A DNA stretch of 64,000 nt from Hormiphora californensis (taxonomy: Eukaryota; Animalia; Ctenophora): NCBI GenBank assembly GCA_020137815.1, contig CM035352.1, positions 7,936,001 to 8,000,000 on the forward strand, written 5' to 3'. Position numbers and translations under genes: made by a program. Shown here piece by piece: positions 6,807 to 37,865 of the stretch. The notes under the pieces were generated by a model. The model did not search any database and had not been told where the DNA came from. It saw nothing but the letters and a program-made list of their open reading frames with translations. Within the stretch, counting starts at the first letter, position 1. Each line of letters opens with the position of its first letter.

Positions 6807-8511
6807 AAAATCTTCGTTTAACGTCATGTTTTAAAAATTAAGCTACCCCCCGGGCTCCTCATGTGGGGTGTGGCCTTTCAGTTTTTTTAAAAATGATCAC
6901 TCTCCCAAATTCCCCGGGTATTCCCCCAAAGCCCCCCTTCCCGATTTATTCCTCTTAAATTCCTCAATCAAAACCCTTCCCCTTTTTACAATCCCCCTTG
7001 TAAAATTGGGGGTTATTTCCCCACCGGCTTTTTTACGTGCTTTATGTGATTTAAAAATTTTACTACAATGTTTTTCTGTGAAAATGGGAATTTTTCCCCA
7101 AAATAGGGGGATTTTAAACACTCCCTCATTTCAGTTCACGGTCATCCCCCAAAATAGGTTTTTTTCGGTTTTTAATTTTGTTGATTTAAAGTTTTTAAAA
7201 AATTCGTTTTTTATATGTTCGTTTAAAAATTTTTGTTAGTGTCTTTTTTGTTTTTTTTACCTTCTTTAGTTTTTGGGGAATTTTTGGGGGTTTTTTTGTT
7301 TTTTTTACGACTCGTATCGGGGAATCTTTGATCATTTTAGCCCCCATTTGGGAATTTATTTATCTAGGCTTCTTGATTTCTTTGAAAGCCAATCCTTTTG
7401 TATCCGGCCAAACTTTCTTATTTTGGTTTTCCCCCGTTTTTTTTCTTTTTTATTCCCTGTAATTTTTCGCTCCAGATAACATTCCTTTTAATCTTTAAAA
7501 AAGGGCGAGGGAAAGGGGGAAAGGGCAGATTTCGGGGATTCTAAACCCATAGGGGAGAGAGAGGGGAAAGAGGAGAGGAGGAAAGGGGAAAAATCTCTCT
7601 TTTTCCTCCTCTCTCTCTTCTCTTTTTCTCTCTCCTCTTCTCTCTCTTTTCTTCTTTTCTCCTCCCCTCTCTCTCTCTAAACTTCTCTCTCTCTTCATTC
7701 TCCCTTTTCTCTCTTTTCATTCTCCCCATTCATAAAAAGAAGGGGGAACCCGTTTTTTGCGTTTTTTTGTTTTTAAATCTCCGGGAAAAGGGGGGGTCCG
7801 TCTTCCTCAAAAAAAGTGCCCTTTGAACAAATATTATAAACAAAAGGGTTTAAAATTTAAAAAAACGTGAAAAATGTTCCCCATAATCCCCGGGGAAAAA
7901 TTTTGGTGATTTTGGATGCGATTTACAACCCCCTGTTTCTAGGGCTTTCTAAAAAATAAAAAACCCGACCTAGAACCCGTTGCTTTTGCCAGTTATTAAT
8001 CCCTTGACCCGGGATAGCCTCAAAGGACAAGAAGATACACAGACAGACGGAATAAAAAGCTACATTTTAATTATTGTTTGCTGACTCTGAGCGCTTTTGA
8101 ATGATTGTTGCATGATAGATGCAGACTGCAGCTACAATTACTAGCTTCACCTGCTTACTAACTGCTATTACAGCTGTTTCACCCAGCCGTATCTTACAAT
8201 ATGTATTTTTGTGATGTCCTAAATTATCTATTATCTCACCCTAATTATCTAGTCAGATAGCTGTTTAACCTTCTGCCTGCCCTGTTAACCCCATATTAAC
8301 CCTATCTCTACCCTGTTAACCTCTTGTTAACCCCATGTTAACCTTATATCTTGTTATAGCACCACCGCCATGGAGTTTCTCAGGGCGGATGCTGCCAACA
8401 ACGCCCCCCCCCCCCCCGCCCCCTGTCTTGTTACCCCCCCCCCCCTAGGCCTACCCTGTTAACTCCTGTTAACCCCATGTTAACCGTATATCTTGTTATA
8501 GCACCACCGCC

Positions 8512-10817
8512 ATGGAGTTTCTCAGGGCGGATGCTGCCAACAACGCAGGCACGGAGCAGTTCTCCGATAAGAAAATGGTGTGGATTCTTGACAAGGAGAA
8601 GGGCTTTGAGAAGGCAGCCATACTGGAGGAGAAGGGGAGATAATGTGCTGGTCCAGAAAAATGGAACTAACGAGGTTCGTGTCCTAATACTAGTTGTTAC
8701 CATGGTAACCTCTTCAGTGAAACTCTTACCCCTGTTTCAATTTGTTGGCCTTACCCCCCCCCCCCATTCAGGAGTTGACCCTGAAAAAGGAGGACACCCA
8801 GCAGATGAACCCTGCTAAGTTTGAGAAGCTGGAAGATATGGCCAATCTGACGTATCTGAACGAGGCCAGTGTCTTGCATAACCTCAGGCAACGATACTTC
8901 TCCTCCATGATTTATGTGAGTGGGTTTGTTTGTTTGTTTGTTTGTTTGTTTGTTTGTTTGTTTGTTTGTTTGTTTGTTTGTTTGTTTGTTTGTTTGTTTG
9001 TTTGTTTGTTTGTTTGTTTGTTTGTTTGTTTGTTTGTGGGTTCTTATAGGAACATGAGTGCAGCTCGTGTTATCGGATCAGTGTGGTACACGTGCCGGGC
9101 CGTTATCAAGTGTGATTGTACTGAATTGTCAGTCCTTGTTCCTATCTCTCGAGAACAGCTGATCTATCGACTCCATCTTTCTCTCTCTCTCTCCCCCCCT
9201 CTCTCTCTCCATCTTTCTCTCTCCCTCCCTCCCTCCCTCCCTCTCTCTCTCTCTCTCGGTTGTAGGGTATTACACTCAGAGGCCTGTCATCAAGTATTCC
9301 CTACAGCTGCATTGCAACCGACATCTCTATCTCCCACCCACTGACTCACTACTGACTCACTGAGCTATACAACTACCACAAAGAGAATCAGTAGAGAGAG
9401 ATTGAGTCGAGAGAAAAAGAGAATAGTGTAGAGAATAGTGCAGATTGAGTCGAGAGAAAAAGAGAATAGTACAGTGAATACTACCAAACCTAGATTAGAT
9501 AAAAGCTAACGGGAAGTTAACTAAACCTGGAACCCCCTATTTCAGTTAAGTAAAACCCCATTTTCAGTTAACTAAACTTCCTCTTTTAATTTCAGACCTA
9601 TTCTGGTATATTCTGTGTGGCGATCAACCCTTATGCCAGGCTACCAATCTATACCAAAGAAGTCATCCAGTCTTACAGGGGAAAACGGTAAGCACTACCA
9701 TAAGCAAATTAGGTCGTTATCATGCATGAAGAAGGTAAACAAAATCAATTTGTGTATCAAATTGAATATCATTTAGTTAGATGCTAAGTTAAAAACCCTT
9801 CAGGCGAACGGAGATGCCTCCTCACATCTACACTGTGGCTGATGAGAGTTACCAGCAGATGATCCAGCAGAGAGAGAACCAGTCCATACTGATCACTGGG
9901 GAATCAGGCGCAGGGAAAACTGAGAACACTAAAAAGGGTATGTTATTTTAATTAATTAATTAGTTATACGGAATGTGTTATTAATTTCCTAATTAGGAAA
10001 CCATCATTTAACATCTCAATTAGTAAATAAACCATCATTTAACACCTCCTGCCTATTATAGTTATCCAATACTTTGCCACTATTTGTGGGGTCGAAAGTA
10101 AAAGTGTCGACGGATCACACCTCGATGAACAGCTGGTGCGGTGTAACCCTGTTCTTGAAGCATTCGGAAATGCAAAGACCATCAAGAACGATAACTCGTC
10201 CCGGTTCGGGAAATTTATCCGAATCCACTTTGGAGCACAAGGGAAAATCCATAGGTGAGAGCATCCATCCTCCCTCTCCCCTCATCCCCTCCCCCTTTTT
10301 TCTCAGTTATCCAGTATTTTGCATCGGTGGTAGGAGTAGAACATGGCCCAGGGCACGTTCCCGATGATACAGCCACCAAAAAGACTGGTCTGGACCAGCG
10401 TCTTGTCCGGTGTAACCCCGTCCTGGAAGCTTTTGGAAATGCAAAAACTCTGAAAAACGATAACTCCTCGCGTTTTGGAAAGTTTATCCGAATTCATTTC
10501 GGTGGTTCTGGCAAGATTCATAGGTAGAGAGGCGTGTGTGAAATGAAATACTTAATCAAGCTGGAATGCTGTGCATAATATCATGAAAATAGTTTGAAGT
10601 GTGTGATCTTTCTGCCCCAAAGTGTGAAGTGTGAGTTTAACATTTCCACAAAGTGTGTGAAGTGTGAATTTCACATTTCCACAAAGTGTGAAGTGTGAAT
10701 TTCACATTTCCACAAAGTGTGAAGTGTGAATTTCACATTTCCACAAAGTGTGAATGTGTGAATTTCACATTTCCACAAAGTGTGAAGTGTGAATTTCACA
10801 TTTCCACAAAGTGTGAA

Positions 10818-10849
<32 letters not shown>

Positions 10850-13800
10850 AGCAGCAGTTCATGAAATTAAGTGTGTGGAAGTCTAGTACATATAACAACA
10901 GGTGATATTACACTCTCATGAAAACCAATTTATACGCTGGATCGGCTATTCTGATGATTGAGTTTTTGCTGGTATTGATGTGCTGAAACCACCATCCACT
11001 TCCCCTATCCTTCGATCTCCCGAAACCTCCATACATTTCCTTCTCTCCTATCTTGTCCCCCCCCTGTTTGAAACTACCCTGTACCACACACTTTATCTTT
11101 TGGTTTTGTTTTTGAGTTTGCATCCCAACATATAACGCAGATCTAAATCCATTCTATCTCTAACTCGCATAATTCCAGTGCTGATATTGAGCGTTATTTG
11201 CTGGAAAAGGCTCGAGTCACCTACCAGAATCCTGATGAGAGGTCTTTCCACATTTTCTATCAGATCCTCAAGGGAATGAGCCCTGAAGAATGTAAGTGTG
11301 TAATGCGAATCACGCGTTGTGCACCACGCGTTGTGCATCACGCGTTATGCGCCACGCGTTGTGCATCACGCGATGTTATCAGTAACGCCAATATTCTCAC
11401 ATGATATTTCATATCACCCCCTGTAGTATTTCACAAGCAATAACAACAATTTCCCTGTTATAGTGAGCGACTGTCTGCTGACGAATAACCCCAACGACTA
11501 CTCGTTGCTAAGTAACGGAGATATCATTGTTGACTCTCTGGCGGATGTGGAGTTGTGGCAGGAAACAAAACAGTGCATGGCCGTCCTAAACTTCTCCGGT
11601 ACGATTCACAATAGCATACACGTGTCTTTTGGGGGTAGACATGAGTCCACCCTAGATAGAAGTCGTTAAATCTCAACTTCGTCAATTTGTTATTACCGTT
11701 CTTTTGGGGTGCTTATTCTCTGCTATTATAATGTACAACTAACCCCCCTCCTTCCTTCAGATGAGATGATGAACAAGATATTCCGGTTTACTGCTGGTAT
11801 CCTCCACCTTGGTAACACCACCTTGAAGGCGAATAAGAGGGATGAGGGGTGCTCTATTGACGATACTCAGGTACATTTGGAAACACATGGAACAATGATA
11901 CCACTTTTTAATTCAGTTATTTCCAAGTTTACTTTACTGCACCTTACTTTTTCCTCACCTTAACAACCCAACACTCTCACTGAACAGCTAACTAATTTGT
12001 TTCCTCTCTGCAGTGGATAGAGAAGGCGTGCCACATGTTTGGAGTTAACGCGGTAGATATGACTAAGGCCCTCATCAAACCCAGGATCAAAGTGGGATCT
12101 GAATACGTTCACAAGGGACAGAATGCCGACCAGGTATACCTATAATGAGTAGAATGAATTATGATGAATAGAAATATTGTTCATAATTATTAAATTACAA
12201 ACTGACAACTCCACGCCTATGAATTAATCAGATTTCTGTTTCTTGCCCCTTCTCTGGAGTCGTTTTGACTCAGATTAAACACATTGCATTATCCCTGATC
12301 TTGACAACTAAATGATACACCCATCAGTATAATATCCCCTAACTAAATAACACCCCCACTAGGTGAAACACAGTATCGGTGCTCTATGTAAGTCCATCTT
12401 TGAGAAGATTTTCAAGCTGGTCCTGGACATGTGTAATGAGACACTGGAGACAAAGTTGAGGAAGAATTTCTTTATTGGAGTTCTCGATATCGCTGGTTTC
12501 GAAATATTTGACGTGAGTTATTGTCCTACTTCATGTACTGGACACACAGACTGTGTATAAATGCTAGTTTTCAGACTGAGTTTGTACTACTTCACCGGGT
12601 ACAGATCATCTTTATTAGTTCCTTGGACACACAGACTTGCTTATGCGATCTGATCCCTGCAAAATAACTGAGAACTAAATTATCACGACTTCTCTCTTCA
12701 CAATTTCTAACCCTCTCTCTCCCTCTCTCAGTTCAACTCGTTCGAGCAGCTGTGTATTAACCTGACCAATGAGAAGATCCAACAGTTCTTCAACCACCAC
12801 ATGTTCACGCTGGAACAGGAGGAATACAAGAAGGAGGGAATCAAGTGGGATTTCATCGACTTTGGGCTGGATCTGGAACCCACAATTGAACTTATTGAGA
12901 GGGTAAGTAACACCAACCCCCCTGATTTAGCTAACAACCCTCCCCCACTTCTCTGCTCCCCTGGCCCACCCCTATCTCTCTGGGTCTAGAACAAACCATT
13001 GAACTTATAGAGCGGGTAAGCTTTACGATTATATTCAGGTTTTCCAAATAAGAGCTGGTTTACGATGTATGGCATTTCGTGAAACTATTCTTCTGTACAT
13101 CTGCCCTCCAGTTGCGTTGGCTAACACCTCCGCCTTTATCTAAGACCACCACCCTCCTCTCTCCCATCTTTAGCTAACACACCCCCCCCCCCATTCCAGA
13201 ACATGGGAGTGTTTGCTGTGATGGATGAGGAGTGTATTATGCCCAAGGCTACTGACGCCACCTTCCTCTCCAAACTAAACGGCATCCACCAAGGGAAAAA
13301 CCCGAAATACCAGAAACCCTCGCCAAAGAGTACGAACCACCACCGTCACCATGACAACCACCGTTACCATGACAACCATCATGTGGTTGATTTGAGGGGT
13401 GGCCGCAGTGTGATCTGGTCAAGGGAGACAGACTCAGTTACACTGTGGCCATCCGGACAACAATTTAAACAGACCCACATTACATCATGTACTGGAAATA
13501 CTGATTTTACTGACAGTTGAGATTTTGACTGACAGAGTGACAGTTGTGATTTTGGCAACTGTTCGTGCTGTCTCCACGCAGGACGAAAGGTTCAACAGCG
13601 CCATCAAATATGGTACTTCCTCCATCCACATAACTCAGTTCCTTACTCCACAGGTCAAATGGGAGAAAACCCCGTCAGTTTCCAGATAGTCCACTACGCC
13701 GGTGCAGTGGGATACAACGTGGATGGGTGGTTGGAGAAGAACAAGGATCCACTCAATGAGAACGTGGTTGAGCTATTTGTAAAGAGCAGGGAGCCTATCT

Positions 13801-15816
13801 TCGCAAAGTTATTCGAGGCAAAGGAGGCTGCAGTGTCTACCAAGCCTGGAGCAAGGAGGAAGGGAGGTTCTTTCCAGACTGTTGCCATGATTCACAAAGC
13901 TGCCGTGGAGCAACTTCTGACTACCCTCCGATCTACCACCCCACACTTTATCAGGTACATTACTAAAGGTCAAATCATCAAACACATCATCATATACTCA
14001 ACTGAAGTATTATTTTTGGCAGAGGAGAAAGAGTAACCACTCACCCAAACCAGGTGCAATGGTGTATTCTACCCCCCCCCCCCCCCCAACACCACCCTTC
14101 TAATTAACCCCCTTTCCCCAATCCCCATCCAGGTGTATCCTGCCCAACATGAAGAAGAAGAGTGGAATTATCGAGGCTAAACTAGTTCTGGAGCAGCTGA
14201 GGTGTAACTGGTGTGTTGGAAGGAATCAGGATTGTCCGAAAGGGTTTCCCTAACAGGCTCATGTACTCAGAATTCGTACAGAGGTATGTGATAGCACTGG
14301 TACTGGTTACATAAGGGCAGGTGGTGGACTGCTCGTACCCTGTTTTAAATAGTACCTGAGTTTAATTCAGGAGTCAGGAGTAGTGATATTCCCCCATGTC
14401 GGTCTCAACTCCAATTATAATTCCAGGTACACCATCCTGGCTCCTAGTTCCATTCCTGCTGGATTTATGGACGGGATGAAGGCGACAGAGAAACTGGTGG
14501 AGGCCCTTCAACTGGAGGAGAACAGCTTCCGAATGGGTCATAGTAAGGTAATTAATTAATTAATGGGCCATAGTAAGGTAATTAGTGTGATGAATAATGT
14601 GACATTTGACATTACGAGTCTTGGGATCTCGAACTGTCAGGATAATTGTAGCAGCTCGGTGTTTATCCTAAATCTATCACAAATCTATCCCAAACCCAAA
14701 TATACTGCACAGTGCATAGCGATAGAATCTAAAAATCTCCCCTGATCCCAATCTCCCCTGATCCCAATCTCCCCTTCTATCCCAGATATTCCTGCGGGCG
14801 GGAGTGATTGGCTACCTGGAAGACTTGAGAGACCAGCGGGTAAAGACCGTTCTGATCGGGTTCCAGACCCTAGCTCGAGGATGGCTGGCTAGAAAGCAGT
14901 TCAGGAAGTTGTTGGATCTGAGGGTGGCCTGTATTGTGGCTCAGAGGAACACCCGGCAATACTTCATCTTAAGGAAGTGGCAGTGGTGGAGGCTCTTTAC
15001 TCGAGTCAAGCCACTTCTGAGTGTTACCAGGTGAGTGGCAGTGGTGGAGGCTCTTTACTCGAGTCAAGCCACTTCTTAGCGTCACCAGGTTAGTGGCAGT
15101 GGTGGAGGCTCTTTACTAGAGTCAAGCCACTTCTTAGCGTCACCAGGTTAGTGGCAGTGGTGGAGGCTCTTTACTCGAGTCAAGCCACTTCTTAGTGTTA
15201 CCAGGTTAGTGGCAGTGGTGGAGGCTCTTTACTCGAGTCAAGCCACTTCTTAGTGTTACCAGGTTAGTGGCAGTGTTGGAGGCTCTTTACTAGAGTCAAG
15301 CCACTTCTTAGTGTTACCAGGTTAGTGGCAGTGGTGGAGGCTCTTTACTCGAGTCAAGCCACTTCTTAGCGTCACCAGGTTAGTGGCAGTGGTGGAGGCT
15401 CTTTACTCGAGTCAAGCCACTTCTTAGCGTCACCAGGTTAGTGGCAGTGGTGGAGGCTCTTTACTCGAGTCAAGCCACTTCTTAGTGTTACCAGGTGAGA
15501 AGAGATGGTAGTAAGGTGATGTTATTGGGGTCGGTCCATGGTTTGGTGATGTAGACATGAAGTGACTCATAATTATACTGGTATTATTAATTTGGTAGGG
15601 AGGTGAATTTTGTTTGCTAGCTAGCTACGAATTAGGGGGATAGAAAGAGTCATATTAGCATTGAATAGCTAGAGGAGACAGGTATTATAGTGATGTTATG
15701 CGTCATTAGGTATTCGATAAGGTTTCCCCAGCTGTAAGATATTTCAATGAAGCTACGCCCAAGTTGTAGTTTCTCTCTCTATCTCTCTATCTCTCTATCT
15801 CTCTATCTATCTCTCA

Positions 15817-15872
<56 letters not shown>

Positions 15873-18800
15873 ATCTCCCTCTCCTTCTCTTCATTATTAT
15901 GTAACCTTTCAACCCTGACTGCCTTTTCCTCTCTTCTCACCCTTTACTTATACGCAGCCTAGTACAAGTATTATCTCATCCCATGGAATGTCCTATAAAT
16001 CCATGAACCTAAATCTCATTCTTCCGAATGCTCAGTTGTCGCCCCGCACAACCACACTCCCCCTCCCCCTCCCCTATCGACCAAGTCCCATCTGCCCCAT
16101 CTGCCGCTCCTAACATCCACTACCTCGATAACTCCCGGTTATTATAACACCACTCCCCACAGGCAAGAAGAGGAGTTCAAGGACAAAGAAAAGGAGATGC
16201 TAAAAGTGAAGGCTGCAGTTGACGAGACCAAGGCAGAGAATGCTGAGCTCCAGTCCAAGATGGAAACCCTGAGTTCCGAGCACTCTAAAATCAAGGACTC
16301 GCTAGAGAAGGAGCAGCAGGCTGCGATTGAAGCAGAGGAACAGTGTACCAAGTTGGAGGGGATGAAGCAAAAACTAGAGGATGAAGTTGCTGTGAGTGTG
16401 GTTTTGTTTCGTTCAATTTGTACCACTGAATCAAAGTTGGTAGTCACCAATTTACCAATTTACCAAGGTGACTGATATTGTATGAAGTTCATCGAATATC
16501 CAACAACCCAATCTCTCAGGCCCTTATGGAACAAATCGACGAAGAACAGGATAACAACTTCAAGATTTCCTCACAAAAGAGGGCCCTTGAGGCTGAGTTA
16601 TCGGAAGTGAAGGGTAACCTGGAGATACTGGATTCTAATCTCAAGAAGGTACGGGAGATGTAGACCCCCACACCCCCCCCCCCCCCCCCCCCTCCGAATC
16701 CCGATATAGATCGGTGTAGTTGACACAACTAAGTTACAATCACCTGTTTTCTCTAACCTCTCCCCAGGAAGAGCCTATTTCTCCACTCTCCAGCTTTTCC
16801 TTACCCTTCCCCTCCACAGAAAGAGCAAGATCTGCACCGGAAGGAAGATGCCCTGGCCGCTAAAGAAGAAGAGTCAGCTAAAAAGGAGGAGGAGCTAAAG
16901 AAGCTGGTTGAGAAACAGAAGACAATGGAGGGAAATATAGCTGACCTTGAGGTCTCCCTGGGTTCTGCTACTGAGAAGGCAACCAGTCTGGATCGAGCAA
17001 AGAAGAAGCTGGAGGGAGAACTGAAACGTAGGTTTTATAATAAATCAGCTCCTAGATGTGTCTTGACATCCTCTAAATCCGTCCCAAATACAGTAATAGC
17101 TGGTTTAAATTCCCCTATTTTTCAGGATTTGAGGATGAATTAGAGGCTGAGAGAAAGGCCAAGGCGGCTCTTGACAAGTCTCTGAGAGGAAAGGAGGCTG
17201 AACTGAAAGACGCTAATGTCAAGATTCAGGAATTCACCGAGTGAGTCATATTTAGAAGTATCAAACCAAACATGTTCATAAGTTCGATTACCACGGTTCT
17301 AGGTCTGAATCTGAATACAATCAGTACATTCAGTATTCAATGCATTCAGTGGATCAGTAGTTAAAACATCTCCCCCTAGTGCTAAATATCTCCCCTAGTG
17401 CTAAAGCTGCAGTAGAGGCTGAGCTGAAGAAGAGAGATGGGGAACTGTTAGCCAGCCAGACTCAGCTTGAAGAGGAACAGGAATCTGGACAGAAGAAGGA
17501 TCGGGTGATAAAGGATCTGAACAACAAGATACACGATCTAGAGGAGGAGCTTGAGGTAATTTAGTAATTAAGTGATGTTAGATCAATGATCAATGATTCT
17601 TTCAGTTTACTAATATTTGTTTGACTTTATTTTCAATATTTTGACAATCTCTAGCTTCTCCAGCTCTTTCTAATCTCATCTCTCCTTCCTTCTAACCAGA
17701 TCACTATCCTCCAACTCACCATCTCCCTCCTTCTTTAGAGTGAACGTTCATCCAGGGGACGAGTTGAGAGGCAGTGTAAGGAACTGGACCGTGAGCTACA
17801 GGATCTTCAAGAGCGACTGGAGGAAGCCGGTGGTGCCACTGCTGCTCAGGTACAACTCCAGTTACCATGGTTACCATTGTGTGTTACCATGGTTACCATA
17901 TGTAATTGCGTTTTAACCCACCAAGATTGGGTTATATTTTAGTTACTGTGCAGTGCAACAAGTCTGCTGGACATGTCTGTTTGTCTGTTTGGGTGTGTGT
18001 GGTTAGGGCTGTAATGGTTTGATCTAGTTGACCCTTGATCGTGTTTGTTTGGTATATATCACGTGACTCACATCACATGACCTGGAGGCTGGAAAGAGAG
18101 ATAGAGAGAGGGGTAGTAACAGTGTTTCTGATTGAGTTATACACCACTCATACACTCTTTGATCTCGACACGCCTCCTGTGTTTTCTCTGATCCCTTTGT
18201 TACGTGATCCTGTATTTGATTGTTTGATTGATCCTGCAGGAGTTCTGATTGAGTTCATATCTCACTTTCCACCTTCCACCTTCCTTCCCCACAGTATTAA
18301 CGACATTCCAACTCTCACATCACGCAGTTAGCACCATTCTGTCAAACTGGCAATCTGAGCCAACAGCACAAGATCCTGAAGTCACCTAATTAACACCACA
18401 CCATCACCACCATCACCATCACAAGATGAACAGCTCAATATCCCTACTTGATCTGTCTGATCTGTCATCCTCTGATTACTACTCCACCACTAACACTTCC
18501 ATCTACAGTAACTACACAAGAAAGGTACCCCGCCCACATTTCACAGCAACCAATGTTATAGTTAACACTGTACAGGGTGTCCCATTTCTAGTATTAGAAA
18601 ATGAAATGATATTGGAATAGTAAAGAGAAACCCTGTAAAGAACGCCCTAGTTTATAATAACTCTGTAACTCTAGTTTATAATAATCCCCCTCCCTTAGTT
18701 GGATCTGAACAGGAGGCGAGAGGAGGAGATAATCACTCTCAAGGCAGAGCTAGCCGCTAATGAGACGACCCACAGTGATGCTATTGATGCCCTGAAGAAG

Positions 18801-21800
18801 AAATTGGCTGATGTCACACTGCAACTTGAGGAACAAATTGACCTGGCCAAGAAAACCAAGATCAAGTAGGTTGTTGTGTGGTTCACACCACAGTGCGATC
18901 TGTAAGGGTTCACACAGCTGAGATATATCCAAAATTATATCTCTTCCACTAAATTCTTTACTAATTACTAGTAAATCCCCTTCATTAATGACAATATTCC
19001 TACCCCCTACCAGGAACGACAAAGACAGGAAAGCAGCCCAGGAAGAGATCGACCACCTGAATGAGGCCCTGGACACCATCGGGAAGCAGAAGGGAAACCT
19101 TGACAAGACTGTGAGGGTACTTGACGAACAGCTTGGTGATGCTAATAGTAGGTGTTCTCAAATGGAGACCAATCTGAGAGAACTTGCTGATAAATACAAC
19201 AAGTAAGTGGGGTGACCAATCTGAGAGAACTTGCTGATAAATACAACAAGTAAGTGGGGTGAACTGTCCTTACAATATTAGTAAAAAGAAGTTTTTTATG
19301 CAGAGAATATTGTGGTGCATAGGGGGCTCAGTGAAACAGTTCATAGACTTGATCAACTTGTTTTACACTTTCTTCTCCCCCCTAGGCTGGTGAAGGAAAA
19401 CAACGACTTTGCTCAAAAGATAGAAGATATGGAGTCCAAGGAGGCCATGTTGAGCAAGAGTAAGAAGGGACTCCAGAGCCAGATTGATGATCTTGGTGGT
19501 CAGTTGGAGACTCTGAACTCTGAGAAGAATGGAGTGCAGACCCAGTTGAAACAGGCCCTCTCTGAGATTGAGGGACTTCAGGAGGAGGTGGAGATGGTAA
19601 GTTCTTGAGAACTAGAGATCTAGTCAATGAGTTGAGTTGAAGTGAGGATGAGATTTAATATTTTCATGAGTTATAGAACTGTTTTCGAAGTAGAGCATAG
19701 TGTCGCTGGATAAAAGATCTAGATTATAGAAAGCTATAGAACAAAATGAAAGAGCTAACAATCCTCTTCCCCACTCCAGGCTACAAGTGAGAAGGAAGAC
19801 AAGGAGAGAATGCTAGGAATCCTCCAGAGTGAACTAAACACAGCCCGTAACGCCATCACCAACGAGCACGTCCCCCGAATCGAGGAGCTGGAGGGAGAGA
19901 ACAGGAAACTACAGGTTAAGATTACTGAACTCGAGGACGCAGTTGATGAGTCCCAGACCAAGGCAAATAACGCTGAGAAAACCAAGAACAGGATTACGAT
20001 GGAGTTGGAGGATACTAGTGTAGAGTTGGATCGAGTGAAGAATGACCTGAGTAGCATGGACAAGAAGCAGAGGAAGGTGGATCAGATGATGTCAGAGTGG
20101 AAGGGTAAATGTGATCAGGAGACGGCTAAGAATGAGGGTCTGGTCCGAGAGATCCAGAAGATCTCCACTGATCACATGAACCTGAAGAACACTAATAATG
20201 AGATACAAGAGGAGTTGGATGGTGTTCGGCGGCAGATCAAATCCCTCCAAGCGGAGAATAATGACCTGACTGAACAGTTGGAGGGAGGTGGTAAGGCTAC
20301 CCACGAGATAGAGAAGCTGAGGAGGAAGCTGGAAACTGATAATGAGGAACTGAGGGGTCAGTTGGAGGAAACAGAGGGTCTACTAACTATGGAGGAGAAC
20401 AAGACCAGCAAGCTGCAGTTGGAGTTGAGTGGAGTTAAGATGGAGATGGAGAGGAGGTTGGGAGAGAAGGAGGAGGATAGTGATAAGGATAGGAAGAACC
20501 TATTGAGGCAGATTGACACCCTTCACCAGCAGCTTGAGGATGAAGCCAAGGTTAAGAATGACCTGGCTAAGGCAAGGAAGATGGCTGAGGGAGAGGTCGG
20601 TGGGCTACACGAAGATCTGGATAATGCAGAGAAAACTATCGCAGCACTCAACAACAACCTGGGTAAACAACAGAAGGGTATTCAGGAGCTGCAGTTGGCC
20701 TTGGAGGATGCCAACAAGAATGTCGAGAACCTGAAGGCAGCTCTGTTGAAGAGTGATAAGAAGGCAACCTCTCTGGCTACCCAGAAGACTGATATTGAGG
20801 GATCCTTGGAGAGGGCTGAGAGGCAGAGGAGGACCCTTGAGAATGAGAAGGGTGAGCTCACATCTCAAGTTGCCACTCTGGAGAGCCAGAAGGCTAGTGC
20901 GGAGAGTGGAAGGAAGAAGCTGGATGCGGAGTGTCATCAAATGAGGGACTTTGTGGAGGATCTAGAGGGAGAGAAGAGGGATGTGGAGATCCTGCTGCAG
21001 CGGGCTAATGATGCTCTTAACAGGTGGGTGTGTTTGTTTGTTTGTTTGTTTGTTTGTTTGTTTGTTTGTTTGTTTGTTTGTTTGTTTGTTTGTTTGTTTG
21101 TTTGTTTGTTTGTTTGTTTGTTTGTTTGTTCGTTTGTTTGTTTGTTTGTCCCTTTCTGACACTATAGACCTCATAAATAGCTATACTTCTAGAGTTCAAA
21201 ATTCCAACCAATCTCTCTCTCAGGTGCCAGAGTGAGCTGAACCTGGAACAAGAAGCCAAGGGGAACCAAGAAAGGGCATGCCAGACCCTCACCAGGCGTA
21301 TTGTGGAGCTTGAAGGACAACTCGAGGATGCCGAGAATGCTGTCAGGTAAGACCCGTTACTCTCTCCTGGTGAAAGTAACAGTCTCTCCGGCTCTCTCCT
21401 AGTTAAAGTAACAATCTCTCCGGCTCTCTCCTAGTTAAAGTAACAATCTCTCCCTGCTCAGGTCAGCCGGTAAGGGCAAGATCCAGGTTATGGAGACTAA
21501 GATCCGAGGACTGGAAACCGATATTGATGCGGAGATGAAGAGACGAGTTGATGCTGAGAAGGTAATTCTACCAATTAATCACTAATTAACAATCAACAAT
21601 TGTCTACTGACCACTCAATCCTTCGTGACTCATGATCTCTAATGTAGTGTTTGGGTACCTTGTGGATCACTGACCAATTACCAAGAATTTTGGCAAGGCG
21701 TCCAACCAGTTAGGTCATGACCCCGCACCCCGGTCCATGTGATTCATGATCTCTAACATACACTGTATCTCCCAGGCTCTGAAGAAGGCAGAACGAGCTA

Positions 21801-23331
21801 TCAAGGAGAATGCCTTCAACGCCGAGGAAGATCACAAGACAATCCAGAGACAACAGGGAACCATTGACATGGGAAATAACAAGATCAAATCCTTCAAACG
21901 TCAACTCGACGAAGCGGTACGTTTGTTATCTGATTTATATTAGGTTGTCCTAAAATTATTACGCATTTACTGACTGATCATTTTTAACCCACTAACTAAT
22001 TAGCTAATTAACCCCTACAGGAGACCCATTAACTAATTAGCTAATTAACCCCTACAGGAGACACAGATCCAACAGCTAAACAGCAAGTTGAGAAAGGCCC
22101 AGAATGAAGTTGCTGAGGCAGAAGAGAGAGCCGACATGGCAGAGAGTTCCTTGTCCCGGGCATCTACCCGAAATAGAGCCGCCACTGCTCGACTGGGACG
22201 ATCGGTATGTTGAGTCACTCAATCACTAGTAAAATATAGCCATTGATTGTGCATTAGTCAGTTTGCACAATATGATTCCAATCACAGGACGTGCAGGGTA
22301 GCCCTCGAACGGTAAGAATCGCCATTGTACAAATAATAGCTGTGTTACCATAGCAACCCTGAGAGGTGTTACCATAGCAACCCAGAACCCTGGGAGGTGT
22401 TACCATAGCAACCCTGGGAGGTGTTACCATAGCAACCCTGGGAGGTGTTACCATAACAACCCTGGGAGGTGTTACCATAGCAACCCTGGGAGGTGTTACC
22501 ATAGCAACCCTGGGAGGTGTTACCATAGCAACCCTGGGAGGTGTTACCATAGCAACTCTAGGAGGTGTTACCATAGCAACCCTGGGAGGTGTTAACATAG
22601 CAACCCTGGGAGGTGTTACCATAGCAACCCTGGGAGGTGTTACCATAGCAACCCTGGGAGGTGTTACCATAGCAACACTGGGAGGTGTTACCATAGCAAC
22701 CCTGGGAGGTGTTACCATAGCAACCAGTAGCATTTGATATAAAATAGCACTGTTCATATATGGGAAGTTGTACTGGGCTTGGTAAATGTTATCAACGTTG
22801 TTTTCATTACGTTACTCATTCTAGCCGCGTGTTTTAAACATCAGATGGCCGGTTCTCTCGGGAAGTTTCTAATTTCATTATGTCATGCATAATAATGTAA
22901 TAATAGCTCATCATATAATGACATCACACATTCTTGCCATGTGTGATCACTATAATCACACCTAAAACGTGGTGACATCACACATCCTAATCACACTAAG
23001 ATTTCACACGCCCACTTCCAGGACTACGTACCGAGGAATGCCCGAACCCGAGGAGGAGATGAGGAGGAGGAATAGAGAGAGTATGTGAGGTAAATAGTGA
23101 GGGTGACGGGGGACACTTTTGGGAGGGGTAGTTTAGCATGGTGCATGTTGCAGATTTGTAGCATTAATCTCTCTCAGCCATACTTTGTTAATAACCCCTC
23201 TCCCATTTCTCCAGGCGTCTCTCTCGCAGTCTGTTGGGGTCAGGAGAAAGAGTGCAAGCACTAGGACCCCTGTACCAACATCCCCAAAACTTGGCCGGGA
23301 CAGCAGTGAACCACCTGCAACCCCTCAGTAA
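8512..23331 (+). CDS. Mhc: Class II myosin heavy chain, striated-muscle (ST-MyHC) type. Exons: 8512-8674, 8772-8915, 9596-9687, 9804-9937, [10062-10254 | 10307-10523], 11179-11291, 11464-11598, 11761-11870, 12014-12133, 12363-12512, 12732-12902, 13200-13329, 13654-13954, 14133-14283, 14427-14547, 14786-15030, 16163-16391, 16520-16648, 16820-17027, 17126-17240, 17399-17555, 17739-17849, 18699-18865, 19014-19202, 19386-19596, 19780-21023, 21224-21346, 21462-21561, 21776-21916, 22058-22204, [23022-23075 | 23215-23331]
   Basis: Manual splicing with GT-AG and phase-consistent exons. Motifs: [28 protein letters not shown]-loop GESGAGKT, switch [10 protein letters not shown], switch [21 protein letters not shown], loop 2 [16 protein letters not shown] hook, long heptad rod. 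Kozak CCGCCATGG. Two single-base insertions (~8634-8637 G-run; 14209) must be removed; both are probably consensus errors. Confidence 0.95.
8924..9036. repeat. (GTTT)n microsatellite in myosin intron 2
   Basis: Direct read; a similar tract is at 21030-21148. Confidence 0.95.
10062..10254 (+). CDS. Mhc: Myosin mutually exclusive exon 5a ([64 protein letters not shown])
   Basis: TAG acceptor, GTGAGA donor, phase 1 to phase 2, 193 nt. Confidence 0.9.
10307..10523 (+). CDS. Mhc: Myosin mutually exclusive exon 5b ([72 protein letters not shown])
   Basis: CAG acceptor after a pyrimidine tract, GTAGAG donor, same phases as 5a, 217 nt. Confidence 0.9.
10620..10845. repeat. ~30-32-bp tandem repeat (AAGTGTGAAGTGTGAATTTCACATTTCCACA) plus (TG)n
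   Basis: About 6 copies in the intron after the MXE pair. Confidence 0.85.
14976..15498 (+). repeat. 58-bp tandem array (9 copies) of the myosin exon 16 3' end plus splice donor
   Basis: Units end in ACCAG|GT at 15030, 15088, 15146, 15204, 15262, 15320, 15378, 15436, 15494. Confidence 0.95.
18051..18070 (+). promoter_or_regulatory. Putative internal promoter elements (TATATA, E-box CACGTG, TGACTCA) upstream of the candidate rod-isoform exon
   Basis: Sequence GGTATATATCACGTGACTCA; motif match only. Confidence 0.3.
18426..18524 (+). CDS. Candidate internal alternative first coding exon ([33 protein letters not shown]) for a headless myosin-rod isoform
   Basis: 33 codons from ATG to an AAG|GTACCC donor in phase 0, matching the phase-0 acceptor at 18699 ([10 protein letters not shown]). 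Sits in an 849-bp intron, longer than the flanking rod introns and free of obvious repeats. Confidence 0.6.
22288..22311 (+). CDS. Mhc: Candidate 24-nt frame-preserving micro-exon (DVQGSPRT) in the myosin tailpiece
   Basis: CACAG acceptor, ACG|GTAAGA donor, phase 0/0. Confidence 0.5.
22344..22724. repeat. 24-bp minisatellite x16 (GTTACCATAGCAACCCTGGGAGGT); most units carry an RFX X-box-like palindrome
   Basis: Direct read of units. Confidence 0.93.
23022..23075 (+). CDS. Mhc: Myosin C-terminal exon variant 1 ([17 protein letters not shown]), a stop-containing cassette exon with donor at 23081
   Basis: CCAG acceptor, phase 0, TAG, then AGAGA|GTATGT. Confidence 0.75.
   Translation, partial: DYVPRNARTRGGDEEEE
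23215..23331 (+). CDS. Mhc: Myosin C-terminal exon variant 2 ([38 protein letters not shown])
   Basis: Pyrimidine tract plus CCAG, phase 0, open for 38 codons. Confidence 0.75.
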   Translation, partial: ASLSQSVGVRRKSASTRTPVPTSPKLGRDSSEPPATPQ

Positions 23332-24039: not shown

Positions 24040-25651
24040 ATGTTTATTCTAGAGGGTGTTCTAGAGGGTGTTCTAGAGGGTGTTCACTTCTCACATTTCT
24101 TTCACTTCTCACATTTCTTCACTTCTCACATTTCTCTTATCTATTTCACTTCTCACATTTCTCTTATCTATTTTGTATCTCGAGCAGCGCTCTGCATACT
24201 TGTACAACTGCTAGTGTTCCTGACCTAGTAAACCTGTACTGGCCAACCAGTTCCAGATGGATCGAGCGTTCTCAACATGGCAACATTCAGTTCCTGGCGA
24301 CAATGCAGGTGTAGCGGACTTCATCCGGCTAGAGACCTCAATCCTGGCTACTATGAGGAGAATCGGGGGCTACCCTGACTCCAACAAGGAGGGTGGTGAA
24401 TTTGATCCTAATAAGATCACTACCAGCAAACTATCGAGTCTTGACACCAACAAGAAGGTAAAGTTGATTGCAGACATGGCCGGTCTGCTCTGGTTCCGAG
24501 CTCTGCCCCTGTCGAAGTTAGCTAGAAAACAGTTTGAGCTAGTGGAAGAAAAACCAAATCTTGACGAGTCTAAGGAGAAGGTGGAGAAACTACTGGGACA
24601 CTTAGAGCACACCAGAGACCGTCTCGACACTGTCAAGGACGAGCTACTGGAGCGTGACAGGAAAATGATCACCCTTCAAGAAGAGATTAGTGCCCTAAAA
24701 GACTCCATTATATCGATGAAGGATTCTCAACTGGAGAGTAGCATCAGTGCTGTCCAGACTGTTGTAAAAGAGGAAATGAACAGCTATTCATCTGCCCTTC
24801 AGAGCGCTGCTACCAACATGAAGCAGACGTGTGTATCTGCTCTAGCTCCCACCAAGATACGTGCTGCCCTGGCCAGCGCCACAGTTGACCGATCTGCGAA
24901 TCTGATAGTCTATGGACTGGCCGAGAACAATGATGACAGCGACTCTACCAGGGTAAAGGAATTGTTTCAGAATTTGGCCGAGGCACCTGTTTTGGTGGAG
25001 GTTGATAGACTGGGGAGGAGGCGTGAAGAGCATGTGCGTCCTGTTCGTGTGGTATTGAGGAGCAGGGAAGTAGCTAGGACTATTTTGGGCAAATCTGCTC
25101 AGCTGAGGGACTCCGATACTCATCAGTCTGTATACATTTCCCCAGACAGAACTCTAGAAGAAAGGGCTGAAAGGAGGGATCTTGTTGCCAGAATGAGAGA
25201 GAAGAGGGAGAGAGAGCCAGAGAAGGTTTTTAGAATCAGGAGAGGCTCTGTTATCGAGATCAATGAGTGAGTGATTTTATGTGTGAGAAGGGAAGAGACT
25301 GAGCTGCTATATCGTGTATGTTCGCTTGGGTGAGAATGAGAACGAGAGAGGGAGACATGAGCTTTGATATAATACCACTACATATTCACTTCATTTTACA
25401 GAATTTCTATAATTATTACCATTATTACCTTTGAAGTGTGAAACATATTGTTCGGACACGGTGGGTACCAGGGTGGGGCATTCTGGTAAACGCACACAAA
25501 AGACCTTACCCGTCTTCGTGTTATTAGCCTTGATGCGTCACCCTGTATCCCCACCCAGTTTTGTCCAGTATGGCTGGTTTTCTTGACATTATATATTTAA
25601 TTTCGGCACATGCCACTGCCAGCGGCAGTTTTGATTGATTGATTGATTGAT
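24040..25651 (+). mobile_element. Non-autonomous ORF1-only non-LTR retroelement with (TTGA)n tail; 5' boundary approximate
   Basis: Repetitive 5' UTR (TCTAGAGGGTGT x3; CACTTCTCACATTTCT repeats), ORF1, ~360-nt 3' UTR, microsatellite tail 25630-25651, no ORF2. Confidence 0.65.
24257..25270 (+). CDS. LINE ORF1p-like protein (coiled coil + RRM-like + CTD), 337 aa
   Basis: Intronless. Heptad region followed by NLIVYGLAE...RLG...RPVRVVL...YISPDRTLEER, the motif pattern of L1/CR1/L2-type ORF1 proteins. Confidence 0.8.
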   Translation: MDRAFSTWQHSVPGDNAGVADFIRLETSILATMRRIGGYPDSNKEGGEFDPNKITTSKLSSLDTNKKVKLIADMAGLLWFRALPLSKLARKQFELVEEKPNLDESKEKVEKLLGHLEHTRDRLDTVKDELLERDRKMITLQEEISALKDSIISMKDSQLESSISAVQTVVKEEMNSYSSALQSAATNMKQTCVSALAPTKIRAALASATVDRSANLIVYGLAENNDDSDSTRVKELFQNLAEAPVLVEVDRLGRRREEHVRPVRVVLRSREVARTILGKSAQLRDSDTHQSVYISPDRTLEERAERRDLVARMREKREREPEKVFRIRRGSVIEINE

Positions 25652-27390: not shown

Positions 27391-27419
27391 TCTGATAGGT
27401 TAGGTGCGAGAAATAGCAG

Positions 27420-28134
27420 GCGACTCTACCAGGGTAAAGGAATTGTTTCAGAATTTGGCCGAGGCACCTGTTTTGGTGGAGGTTGATAGACTGGGGAGGA
27501 GGCGTGAAGAGCATGTGCGTCCTGTTCGTGTGGTATTGAGGAGCAGGGAAGTAGCTAGGACTATTTTGGGCAAATCTGCTCAGCTGAGGGACTCCGATAC
27601 TCATCAGTCTGTATACATTTCCCCAGACAGAACTCTAGAAGAAAGGGCTGAAAGGAGGGATCTTGTTGCCAGAATGAGAGAGAAGAGGGAGAGAGAGCCA
27701 GAGAAGGTTTTTAGAATCAGGAAGAGACTGAGCTGCTATATCGTGTATGTTCGCTTGGGTGAGAATGAGAACGAGAGAGGGAGACATGAGCTTTGATATA
27801 ATACCACTACATATTCACTTCATTTTACAGAATTTCTATAATTATTACCATTATTACCTTTGAAGTGTGAAACATATTGTTCGGACACGGTGGGTACCAG
27901 GGTGGGGCATTCTGGTAAACGCACACAAAAGACCTTACCCGTCTTCGTGTTATTAGCCTTGATGCGTCACCCTGTATCCCCACCCAGTTTTGTCCAGTGT
28001 GGCTGGTTTTCTTGACATTATATATTTAATTTCGGCACATGCCACTGCCAGCGGCAGTTTTGATTGATTGATTGATTGATTTGCATTTCTCGACCCTATC
28101 TCACCACCCTCTGGGTTAGAAAATGGTCCAATAT
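27420..28134 (+). repeat. Direct duplicate of 24939-25705 (3' part of ORF1 element plus 3' flank) with a ~50-bp internal deletion
   Basis: Near-identical sequence, including the flank beyond the (TTGA)n tail. Confidence 0.9.
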
Positions 28135-28261: not shown

Positions 28262-30527
28262 CTATAGCTCGCTTTTAAAGGGGTAGTTGATATGTCCCCC
28301 GAAGTGCTTCACTCCACAGGTCCTGTATCCAGGAGCAGGGAAATCCTTGGAAATGTCACTCAACTTATCGACCTCCTCAGAGGACAGAGAGAAGCCAGTT
28401 ACTGCCAGATTCTCAACGATTCGAGAGGGAGTGACACTCTTGGGAATCACAGCGTTACCTGACGGAATGAGAATGTAAATTATATACATAATTAGATGAT
28501 CAAGAGGGGTACCAAATATTCATACTATTCTCAAGTAGCCCACATAACAGGTGATTTATTAGAAGAACACTCTTTTGTGTTCAGTAACCAGAGACCTCAT
28601 TAAGTAGTAGTAAATGGCTAGAAACAATAAGACATGATAAATGTTGCAGTAGACATGAGATGGTGTGGCCATATGGAGGAGAGTGTGAGAGATAGAGTTG
28701 CTCGACCCTCTCTCTCTAATTGCGAACAAAGAAGGACGTTTGAAACAAAGATAACAGGAGTAACTTGATACTGTTAACTGTAAAAATGAACAATTCAAGA
28801 AGTCCTCGACACTCAAACGTAGGTTCTGGTTATACCTTGATTGACCCTCTCTCACCACGCCCCATGTTAGAACCTATAACAATTAACGTACCCTTATCCA
28901 CCTGGTACCGGATTAGTACTTGTCCTGGTGTCACACTATGTGCCTCAGCAATACCCTTCACAACCTCATTCTCCAGCAGGTTCTTCTGTTCTGGCCTCCT
29001 GAACTTGCTGCCAGGGTTCGCTGAAATGGGAGATGTTGGAAACATTGGGATGTGGTGACTTGGGCGGTATTGGGATGCATTGGGACTGGCTGGTAACGAA
29101 ATTACCCCTAAATAGGGCATTGCGATAGTAAGGCACGTTTTAGCGTGCCCACAATGTAGGGGTAATTGCGTTACCAAGGGGACTGGGCGGTATTGGGAGA
29201 GTTGGATAAAATAGTAGGGATAAATGAAAAATCCCGTATCTCCCCGACACTGTTTCAGTTCTAGCAATCATTACCTAGAGGGCTGTATGCTACAAAAGCG
29301 ATGCCCATTCTTCTTACAGTACTCGAGCAGCCCAAGGTTAGGGAGCTGGGGGTGGGATTCAACTTGCAGACAGGCTGGCTTTATCCTGCAGTCGGTAACA
29401 ATTGACTCAATCTGAAACGTGCTGTAATCAGTTGCCTTGCTCGACCTCATTTCACCGCGCCCCGGCATATGTAAAGGAGGATTAAAACGTAACAAGTAGA
29501 AGGGATGGTGGTGAAACAAAGCTAAAAGTTGCTAAATTTGCTAATTTGTTAGTGTAATGATTAGGATAAGGTAGAAAAAGATAGGTAGGCGGCATTGTCC
29601 CAATTCAACCGGTCATTGGCCATCTGTTTCCGGTCTACATTTGCTGTGTACCTATTGCCCCTCTATCCCCCTGTATGTTTACCTGTTCTATATTGAAGTT
29701 TGAGAGACCGATATTTTTACATTTCCCCTCATCCACGAGTTTCTCCATCTCAGTCCAGACTTGGGCAAATGTTGGGTTGCTGGGGTCGGGGATGCACTTT
29801 CCTTCATCATCAAGGGGGAAGAGACCCTTCTCGTGCTCTGGGTGAAGGTGCATGGGCCAGTGAATCAGGTAGAGATCCAAGTAGTCCAGTTGGAGGTCAG
29901 AGAGGGTCTTGGCACAGGCTGCAGCAACCTGATAGAAAGGGTGTTAGAACTTAGAAAAGGATGATCGATATAATATTCACAAAACTCAAACTATAAAATC
30001 TGATTAACTGCTGAATCAAAAGTCATCTTTCACTCATGGGCCCTTGTGCATAAGGTCCCCAACTGCAGGGGTTCACGCCCATGGCAACCACTCTTCAGTC
30101 TTCAATCAAATCAAACAAAAAAGCTTACCTTGTCGGGACGCTGGTTGGTGCACCATAGTTTGCTAGTAACAAACACTTCCTCTCGCTTCACCTCCCCAGC
30201 AGAGAACACCTTGTTAAAGGCAGCCCCAACCTAAAACATGAGGGGTAATACACATGAGACAATAAGAGTGGTTTACATATAATATTGGTTCCCCTTACAC
30301 CTGTTAAAACAATATTCCATTTATACTTGAACTAGAGGTAACCAGTGTCCTCTAAGTGGTTTTACCTCTTCCTCGTTGCAGTACACCATGGCACAATCAA
30401 TGTGTTTGTAGTTGTTATTCAGGGCATGTTCCACGGCAGCCCCAACCACACCAGGGTCACTCTGCCAGGTTCCCAGACCCACAACGGGCATGTCACTAAC
30501 TCCACATTGAATCGTTGGCATTGCCAT
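28262..30527 (-). CDS. Aldo-keto reductase (AKR1-like). Exons 30527-30366, 30230-30129, 29928-29683, 29411-29275, 29020-28892, 28458-28262
   Basis: [13 protein letters not shown] (catalytic D, Y), VTSKLW (K), LDLYLIHWP (H), GLSNFN, QVESHP, AYSPL, VIPKS. One extra G at ~29304-29306 (probable homopolymer error). Confidence 0.92.
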
Positions 30528-30666
30528 GGCAGATGAGGAGGTGCTATTAATGGGACAGTTATAATTAATTGGTTACACTGGCGAGTGGCTTTTTTTGTCT
30601 ATTAAAGTGTGCTCTCAGCTTTTTGAAGTTAGAAGGGCCTGAACCCTTCACCTCACCTGGTGCTTG

Positions 30667-35645: not shown

Positions 35646-37757
35646 CTAATCTGTAATATCAGACACTTTCGTAGTCTCGCTTCCTTCTGCAATCTCTTTC
35701 ATCTCTATTTCAATAGTTGCTTTGGTTGGCCGGAAGACATTCTGTATACTCAGTTTCTTCCACCAAGACAGGACCAACTTGTACAAATCGGAATGGAACA
35801 CGGGGTTCAGACAGCTGTTAAGCGGAAGAATTGAGATGGCAGTGGCATCGTACCAAGTTGAGGAAACTAGCCGCTCCGTGATCATGGTGTAGATCATAAT
35901 ACCCGCCACAAACAACCAAGTAGACAGTTTAACTCCTACTATGATAGCAACCTTTGTTCCTATCTCACTGACACTGTTCTCTCGGAGCGAAGTAATGACT
36001 TTCCTTAAGATGAAGCCGTAGCTGATGATAATGATTATCAGAACAACTCCAATAGTTGCTAGATATCCTGTTTTATAAAGGAGCAGCGTCCCTGTTTTGG
36101 TGCTGAACATGCCTGGGAGGCACACTGGTGACCAGCTATAAAATGAGAAGTCCTGAACTTCATACATACTCGGGTTGTTTGTGGTTGTTTTCAGCTGTTC
36201 TAGCTTCTCATACAGGTTCAGTGGAGATGAGCTGTCGTTAAAGAATAACGCGTGAATCCTGTCAATGTCACTGTAATCTGCATTATATGTTGTGATAAAT
36301 GGGTTTATAGAAGACATCTGGATTTTGGATCTGAAGACCGTCTGTATCTCTTCTATGGGTATCAAAGGCAGGGCAGCATTCGTTAAATTCACTAGAAACA
36401 TCACTACCAAAGAACCCTGCACCAGACACAGTGGAATCCCACTAGAAAAGGGTCTTCCACACTTGTAAGCTCTGGTAACACTCATAAGAAGCACTGTCAA
36501 CAACGAACCATGGCTTGAGAATGTGAAAAGAAAGCCCAGGGTCTGACACAGCGCCCCAGATCGCCACTCCACATCAACTTTACAATACTTGCCGTAGTAC
36601 CACAGGTTAGCAGCTTGAAGGGACACCAAGTAGAGCCCCATGATCAGATCGTGAAACACAAGCGCCACCTTTAAGAGTCTATCAACCTGCAAGTGCTCCT
36701 CCTCAACCCCTCTCCATTCTATCTCGTACAAGTTGTAAGCGTTAGCTATGAAGATTGTTAGGACAGCAAGAGCAGATAAGCCCATTAATGAGAAACTACT
36801 AATGATTCTTTCGTCAGATGAGAATGAACCACCGACACACCCAGAGCACTCATCCAGAGCGTTTTCACAGTCGCTGTGTCCATCACACACCATATCCATC
36901 CCATCCAACCAGTTCGTTTTACTGCAATAAAACCGATCAGGACAATACGTCTCATCCGTCATGTCGGGACAATCGAAAATCCCGTCACACGTTACGTCTA
37001 TAGTGACTTGATCGTAGACAGTTTCGCACTGGTACTTCATGGTGAAGTGACGATTTTTCACCATTCTCCCAGCCACCAGGTTTCCACAAAACTCACTGGA
37101 AACGTTGCAGGCCTCCTTACACATGGTCACGTGATCCAAGGTGGTTTTAGCTTTTCTCAGAAAGAGCATGTCCGCACATAGTAGGTGCTTACCAATCTTT
37201 AGCGGGCATGTGTCTGCACACAGCCTACCGGTCACCTGAGCGAGGTCACGGGTGTGGCACTGTGCCTCAAATGAGGCAGTTGTCGTTGTGTTCCTGCCCC
37301 AGGAATTCTCACACCATGTCTCTTTGGCTCCCTCACACGCTCTCTCATCCTCTCCACCGGGACAGTCAGGAAGAAGGTTGCAAGCAGACTCCACGCTGAC
37401 ACAACCGACACCGCCCGGACAGTAGATTACAGTAGTGTTAGGACAACTACATTCATCGGTGAGGCATTCAGACAGCCCATTACAGACAAGTTCTATCGGG
37501 ATTGTGCAGTTCCAGGTGGCTGTTAGACAGCCATTCCCGTGACCTGGACAAGTCTGGAATCGATTGGGAACCATTGGACAGGTAAAGGAGTTTTTCACGT
37601 GCTTGTTAGGTGGAACCTTTCGGTAGGAATCTGGATCAAAGCTATTACATGTTGTATCAGCGCTTGAAAACTCACAGTCTTGACACGACTCTTGTATGGA
37701 CCTCAGATAGTCGATATTCGGTGCTACGACCAGAGTTAGTAAAGCAAAGAGAAACAT
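35646..37757 (-). CDS. Intronless rhodopsin-class GPCR with N-terminal LDLa/Cys-rich modules (LGR/GRL101-related 7TM), 703 aa
   Basis: Signal peptide. LDLa-type motifs (CNGLSECLTDE, CNLLPDCPGGEDE, CDGIFDCPDMTDE, CDGHSDCENALDE). LGR-like hinge and 7TM: HDLIMGLYL, WRSGALCQTLGFL, VCLP, ILPLNSCLNPVFHS. Kozak ACCACCATG. Confidence 0.9.
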   Translation of the reverse strand: MFLFALLTLVVAPNIDYLRSIQESCQDCEFSSADTTCNSFDPDSYRKVPPNKHVKNSFTCPMVPNRFQTCPGHGNGCLTATWNCTIPIELVCNGLSECLTDECSCPNTTVIYCPGGVGCVSVESACNLLPDCPGGEDERACEGAKETWCENSWGRNTTTTASFEAQCHTRDLAQVTGRLCADTCPLKIGKHLLCADMLFLRKAKTTLDHVTMCKEACNVSSEFCGNLVAGRMVKNRHFTMKYQCETVYDQVTIDVTCDGIFDCPDMTDETYCPDRFYCSKTNWLDGMDMVCDGHSDCENALDECSGCVGGSFSSDERIISSFSLMGLSALAVLTIFIANAYNLYEIEWRGVEEEHLQVDRLLKVALVFHDLIMGLYLVSLQAANLWYYGKYCKVDVEWRSGALCQTLGFLFTFSSHGSLLTVLLMSVTRAYKCGRPFSSGIPLCLVQGSLVVMFLVNLTNAALPLIPIEEIQTVFRSKIQMSSINPFITTYNADYSDIDRIHALFFNDSSSPLNLYEKLEQLKTTTNNPSMYEVQDFSFYSWSPVCLPGMFSTKTGTLLLYKTGYLATIGVVLIIIIISYGFILRKVITSLRENSVSEIGTKVAIIVGVKLSTWLFVAGIMIYTMITERLVSSTWYDATAISILPLNSCLNPVFHSDLYKLVLSWWKKLSIQNVFRPTKATIEIEMKEIAEGSETTKVSDITD

Positions 37758-37865
37758 GGTGGTGTTGGTTTGAATTTTAGCCGGGTTTTTAAAGAACCAG
37801 ATCTCATTAATGTATTCATAAGCTTAGTTCCTCTGCTGCGCTGAGTACAATCAATATCTTCTTGT

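Follow-up and report, generated by a model that had tools for sequence, protein, structure and literature searches.

A pair of alternative loop-1 exons in a striated-type myosin II gene of the ctenophore Hormiphora californensis, likely used one per mRNA

The locus and its genes

We analysed a stretch of 64,000 nucleotides from the genome of Hormiphora californensis, in the following referred to as the window. Its main feature is a myosin II heavy chain gene that contains two alternative versions of one exon, called A and B, between a constitutive exon with the P-loop and a constitutive downstream exon (Table 1). In the A form the gene model comprises 30 exons and 1914 aa with 0 stops, where these figures refer to the modelled part of the gene, its first and last exons not being fixed. 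Two single-base insertions, which were read as X, occur at 8632-8635 and at 14206-14209. The first one is absent in contigs from two samples (runs X4 and X5) and is thus regarded as an assembly error. Reading the gene as a pseudogene was ruled out by the lack of any stop over the 1914 codons together with the missing first frameshift in the contigs of the two samples.

Table 1. Positions of the myosin gene and of the elements of the exon pair within the window.
Feature	Position	Strand	Remarks
Striated-type myosin II heavy chain gene (Mhc2 / MHCIIb2 type)	8512..22204	+	spliced alignment to Mnemiopsis model
Constitutive P-loop exon	9804..9937	+	phase-1 donor common to A and B
Exon A	10062..10254	+	193 nt; AG acceptor, GT donor, open frame; rest of post-P-loop helix, short loop 1, next helix, switch I, beta-strand, following loop
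Intron separating A and B	10255..10306	+	52 nt; single YTNAY, predicted branch point
Exon B	10307..10523	+	217 nt; AG acceptor, GT donor, open frame; same region as A, with loop 1 longer by 8 residues and richer in Gly/Pro
Constitutive downstream exon	11179..11291	+	phase-2 acceptor common to A and B

The relatives of the gene were determined with its 414-residue rod exon, for which 310 matches were obtained among 7983 scored candidates. Within the best 120 of the 310 matches, three protein clusters with 72-76% identity ranked first, including Mnemiopsis leidyi and Bolinopsis microptera. They were followed by a second set at 40-44% identity and then by other animals. In a tree of 16 rows the H. 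californensis gene was placed as sister to the clade that contains Mnemiopsis and Bolinopsis, with a support of 100. Its identity to the orthologues that bear the exon pair is 76-79%, compared to 47-48% for a sister group of six rows, which we take as the other ctenophore paralogue. Judged from these comparisons, the gene is the orthologue of the exon-pair-bearing Mhc of Mnemiopsis and Bolinopsis. Among the models of the orthologues from these two species (P0002, P0122-P0124, P0003, P0125-P0131), different N-termini are found as well, and the C-terminus occurs in at least three alternative versions.

Several short duplications of exon ends are found within and next to the gene. A stretch of 36 nt at 12980-13015 repeats the final part of the relay exon (12732-12902) with 29 of 36 bases identical and has its own GT donor at 13016. 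No suitable acceptor for a usable in-frame relay-copy exon was found at this position, and one relay sequence per species occurs in the models of Bolinopsis (8) and Mnemiopsis (4). The copy probably represents either a non-functional partial duplicate or a leftover of the assembly. At 15033-15504, the 3' end of the neck exon is followed by eight further tandem copies with a period of ~58 nt, each of them ending at a GT. These copies, either a minisatellite or an assembly error, could act as alternative donors. The acceptor and the start of the exon at 8502 are duplicated at 8290-8460, this duplicate ending in a poly-C run. A contig from run X1 continues unbroken through the point at which the two copies diverge, which weakly suggests that this duplicate is an assembly artefact. 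Similar short exon-end duplications are seen at ~14541-14590, 19170-19254 and 22000-22060.

The remainder of the window contains three further features. Exons of an aldo-keto reductase-like gene, a family label which we assume from motifs, lie on the minus strand at ~28800-30600. A 725-codon open frame on the same strand (35649-37823) encodes cysteine-rich repeats followed by a hydrophobic segment. We take the repeats to be LDL-receptor-like and the product to be possibly a receptor. On the plus strand a 348-codon open frame (24224-25267) has a partial second copy at 27404-27793, and both presumably resemble the first frame of a retroelement.

Anatomy and divergence of the exon pair

According to the spliced alignment, A and B are alike in having a phase-1 intron upstream and a phase-2 intron downstream. 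Coordinates, splice sites and frames agree with the original prediction of two intact paralogous exons with identical phases that are spaced by 52 nt. In solved structures of myosin II, exon B corresponds to the region that extends from loop 1 to switch I. The loop peptides are as first written, including the 8 additional residues in B. Loop 1 had also been described as completely different between the exons. This applies to most of the loop, but a GVE start and an LD end are common to both, and the net charge of the two loops is equal. A second difference between the exons is located in the loop after the beta-strand, which reads AQ in A and GS in B.

Outside the variable loop the two exons encode nearly the same protein with very different codons. 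Of the 49 codons that can be aligned, 44 encode the same residue, while the bases agree at 108 of 147 positions and 33 of the 39 base differences fall onto third codon positions. We counted 31.5 synonymous differences over 33.7 sites, i.e. saturation, compared to 7.5 non-synonymous differences over 113.3 sites (dN 0.069), with a Fisher p of ~1e-22 for this contrast. The mostly synonymous divergence that had been noted for the core is thereby confirmed. The dN/dS comparison suggested for A and B provides a value for dN, and dS is not estimable because the synonymous sites are saturated. Within the core 33 of 34 residues are identical. From this pattern, the core of exons A and B is under strong purifying selection between the copies.

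Translation of the possible splice products gave an open frame for A alone or for B alone. Joint inclusion of both exons adds 410 nt and results in a frameshift and a premature stop, just as anticipated from the exon lengths. Premature stops were likewise obtained when both exons were skipped, or when the 52-nt intron was retained together with both.

Such a tandem arrangement might also arise in the assembly, if two haplotypes or a long-read error had been placed one after the other. The extra base near 8634-8638 demonstrates that assembly errors are present, and the local duplications described above are suspicious in this respect. Against this, A and B share only the above 108 of 147 alignable bases and differ by 24 nt in length. 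On a neighbouring exon, by contrast, the contigs deviate from the assembly by at most 5 of 140 letters, among the contigs listed. Furthermore, A and B are each matched by a separate exon in other species. It is thus very unlikely that the pair stems from a haplotype artefact, and to an assembly artefact of any kind we assign only a very small probability.

A and B forms in other ctenophores

For the Mhc2 gene of Mnemiopsis leidyi, two exons over the same region were described by Kollmar and Hatje (2014, PMC3912159), the 3' one having 9 additional residues in loop 1. Both exons had been predicted from the genome sequence, and the pair was named cluster-0 because it matches no other cluster. Whether the orthologue of Pleurobrachia contains the pair is stated as unknown in the same paper.

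The Mnemiopsis and Bolinopsis isoforms considered here are annotation models in databases. Two of the four Mnemiopsis models carry the short A exon and two the long B exon (+9 aa). For Bolinopsis, A is present in three and B (+10 aa) in five of eight models, one of the B models starting just before B. Both exons together were found in none of these 4 and 8 models. Within one species, A and B models are identical outside the exon region, over 1880/1880 and 1863/1863 residues. Among intron-free, transcript-sized records of the orthologues the A form was found in 3/3 and the B form in 0/3. The B type of exon was met in annotation models and in four single-exon gene calls only. Spliced A-form records and annotated B-form models both exist in the relatives. 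In a run presumed to be RNA, 0 contigs matched a 5' exon of the gene, which speaks neither for nor against the use of either exon.

The two exons differ considerably in their conservation. Exon A of H. californensis shares 59-61 of 63 residues with the A exons of four orthologues and 56 of 62 with that of a fifth. Exon B is identical to the B exons of Mnemiopsis and Bolinopsis at 50/71 and 52/71 residues, respectively. The signatures KTL and FGG occur in all 7 B-type rows, and KTI and FG[AT]Q in all 6 A-type rows. Following the shared start, the core of the loop has 8-9 residues and is nearly fixed in A, compared to 16-19 residues of variable sequence in B. As far as the aligned sequences tell, exon A is nearly frozen while the long B loop varies freely.

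Four B-type gene calls from other ctenophores (P0128, P0173, P0174 and P0177) start at a Met located 12-13 codons before the B acceptor. Should this Met lie within the A donor, the two exons would be separated by an intron of only ~39-42 nt in these species. A second exon pair in the other ctenophore paralogue was considered and rejected: the loop-1 variants within its clusters come with 93.7-97.2% identity elsewhere, such that they are species differences. Among the 80 of 551 loci retained in a metagenome scan, 0/80 contained the signature of ctenophore Mhc2 or a switch-I block in tandem.

How mutually exclusive splicing may be enforced

Mutually exclusive use of the exons, as originally proposed, is well supported by the exon anatomy and by orthologue models that contain either A or B and never both. 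In the corresponding splicing scheme the donor at 9938 would be joined to one of the two exons, which in turn would be joined to 11179. The intron between A and B has a length of 52 nt, compared to a range of 97-1132 nt for the gene's 29 remaining introns. It contains one YTNAY motif, whose A at 10284 is predicted from the motif to be the branch point, at a distance of 30 nt to the donor and of 22 nt to the 3' end. The distance from the motif to the 3' end resembles that of many other introns of the gene, and a branch-point-like motif is missing in 5 of the 29 other introns.

For human exclusive exon pairs, a distance between donor and branch point of less than 50 nt as well as a frameshift are recognised enforcers (10.1101/133215). 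The predicted distance of 30 nt within the 52-nt intron lies below this value, which derives from human data and is transferred here to a ctenophore by inference. Joining of A to B would likely be blocked because the predicted branch point is only 30 nt away from the A donor. Joint, skipped or intron-retaining products, having a premature stop, would be removed or be non-functional. Exclusivity is likely enforced by the too-short intron plus the frameshift. A search for complementary sequences around A and B revealed no convincing competing RNA structure. The only recurrent complements were found between either exon and a tandem repeat of 31 nt that lies downstream of B. These matches of 12-16 nt (81-83%) came without a shuffle control and were not counted.

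All three transcript-sized orthologue records carry A, which hints at A as the likely main form, with B being a regulated minor form. Taken further, the same records would be in line with an exon B that is intact but hardly used in H. californensis, such that the gene in practice would encode a single motor. The poor conservation of the B loop in sequence and length (16-19 residues, compared to 8-9 in A) points in this direction as well. However, strong purifying selection acts on the core of B, where 33/34 residues are as in A although the synonymous sites are saturated, the splice sites of B are intact, and B-type exons have been retained in Mnemiopsis, Bolinopsis and four further records. 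Since an unused exon would have decayed, B is probably in use, and a one-motor gene appears very improbable. We hold with high confidence that the pair represents cluster-0 of ctenophore Mhc2, with likely one exon per mRNA and with short- and long-loop motors that are predicted to differ in ADP release.

Age and origin of the pair

In the exon tree A exons group with A exons (support 87/82), B exons with B exons (86/82), and A and B together are separated from the other paralogue (96/96). The nodes uniting A and uniting B are unstarred. When five outgroup rows were omitted, B still reached a support of 86/60, whereas A dropped to 29/26. The best tree places A with A and B with B, and a tree in which A and B of H. 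californensis are sisters is not rejected (p-AU 0.0625). A single old duplication behind the A/B pairs is favoured by these data, but not established. Within the explanation of the pair that we consider well founded, the duplication would have taken place once the two striated-type genes of ctenophores had separated. It probably preceded the separation of the H. californensis lineage from the Mnemiopsis/Bolinopsis line.

The p-AU value leaves room for a separate duplication in the H. californensis lineage that converged onto the arrangement seen in Mnemiopsis. Such an event would agree with the start of exon B in H. californensis, which reads IQYFA as in A, compared to VSYFA in the remaining B exons whose start is complete, and with the frequent local duplication of exon ends in the window. 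On the other hand, B groups with B in the best tree, and the KTL and FGG signatures are common to the B exons of different species. The order, with the long exon in 3' position, and the region are the same as described for Mnemiopsis (PMC3912159). Furthermore, the synonymous saturation between A and B implies that the duplication is old. We therefore see a very slim chance for a lineage-specific duplication and retain the single old duplication as the favoured origin.

Predicted function of the two loops

Loop 1 lies where the nucleotide pocket opens, and its alternative splicing in smooth-muscle and scallop myosins modulates ADP affinity (PMC8629898). Faster ADP release and sliding are attributed to a longer loop 1, and different ADP release was predicted for the two forms of Mnemiopsis Mhc2 (both PMC3912159). 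Because of this reported effect of longer loops, the B form is predicted by analogy to scallop and smooth-muscle myosins to be a faster motor than A with respect to ADP release and sliding.

The original prediction of one gene that encodes kinetically distinct motors included an analogy to fast and slow muscle, and this part has lost ground. Kollmar and Hatje equated Mhc2 with MHCIIb2 of Pleurobrachia pileus (PMC3912159), which was reported in apical organ, gonad, combs and canals and apparently not in muscle (Dayraud et al. 2012, PMC3502136). The muscle analogy is weakened by this assignment of the gene to a paralogue reported in non-muscle cells. It is conceivable, though we put it forward only as a tentative and rather doubtful idea, that cluster-0 is an ancient ctenophore-wide switch with a lock formed by a sub-minimal intron. 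Its frozen short form would serve general non-muscle contraction, and its fast-evolving long form would be confined to one specialised cell type. If true, loop-1 tuning would have been invented convergently outside the bilaterians, and the switch could explain the striated-type myosin in ctenophore non-muscle cells.

Comparison with known systems

The closest known system is cluster-0 of Mnemiopsis. The host genes are orthologous, and the Mnemiopsis models used here differ by 9 residues, as in PMC3912159. In both species the exons extend from the helix after the P-loop through loop 1 and switch I to the loop after the next beta-strand, and the 3' exon has the longer loop 1 together with a second difference in the post-strand loop. 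H. californensis differs in that it is more distant (78% identity), has 8 instead of 9 additional residues and carries a B loop of unlike sequence. The passages of PMC3912159 that treat cluster-0 do not address how long the intron is, how exclusive use is enforced or whether the exons are under selection. A literature search, with most subscription papers lying outside its coverage, revealed neither later work on cluster-0 nor a test of the predicted kinetic difference. In their available portions PMC5583752 and PMC8527503 add nothing on cluster-0, the word 'myosin' occurring 0 times in the main text of the latter.

Clusters 2 and 3 of bilaterian Mhc genes (scallop catch/striated, oyster, Daphnia; PMC3912159) are alike in that alternative exons alter loop 1 near the nucleotide pocket. 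There, the cluster-2 exon holds the P-loop, and an intron at the end of loop 1 parts it from cluster-3 (PMC3912159). In H. californensis, in contrast, the P-loop is part of a constitutive exon, and all of loop 1 and switch I are contained in one exon. The suggested comparison with these clusters thus reveals different exon boundaries, the bilaterian side being taken from the description in PMC3912159. An independent origin of mutually exclusive splicing in this lineage, as had been proposed, is supported. It is not new, since the ctenophore pair had already been set apart as cluster-0 (PMC3912159).

The vertebrate SM-A/SM-B forms share with the ctenophore pair that splicing changes the length of loop 1, which modulates ADP affinity (PMC8629898). 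They differ by a 7-residue insert and by belonging to the smooth/non-muscle branch of myosin II, whereas H. californensis possesses a duplicated exon pair. The 7-residue insert is a cassette exon.

Overall, the feature itself, its independent origin and its predicted effect were already published (PMC3912159). New are the occurrence of the pair in a third ctenophore, which is more distant, the finding that one loop is frozen and the other free to vary, and the likely steric lock. The question of the pair outside Mnemiopsis, which was left open in PMC3912159, is hereby answered, and the pair proves to be old and under selection. It provides a concrete splice switch that can be scored in ctenophore single-cell or long-read data and that bears on the independent origin of ctenophore muscle.
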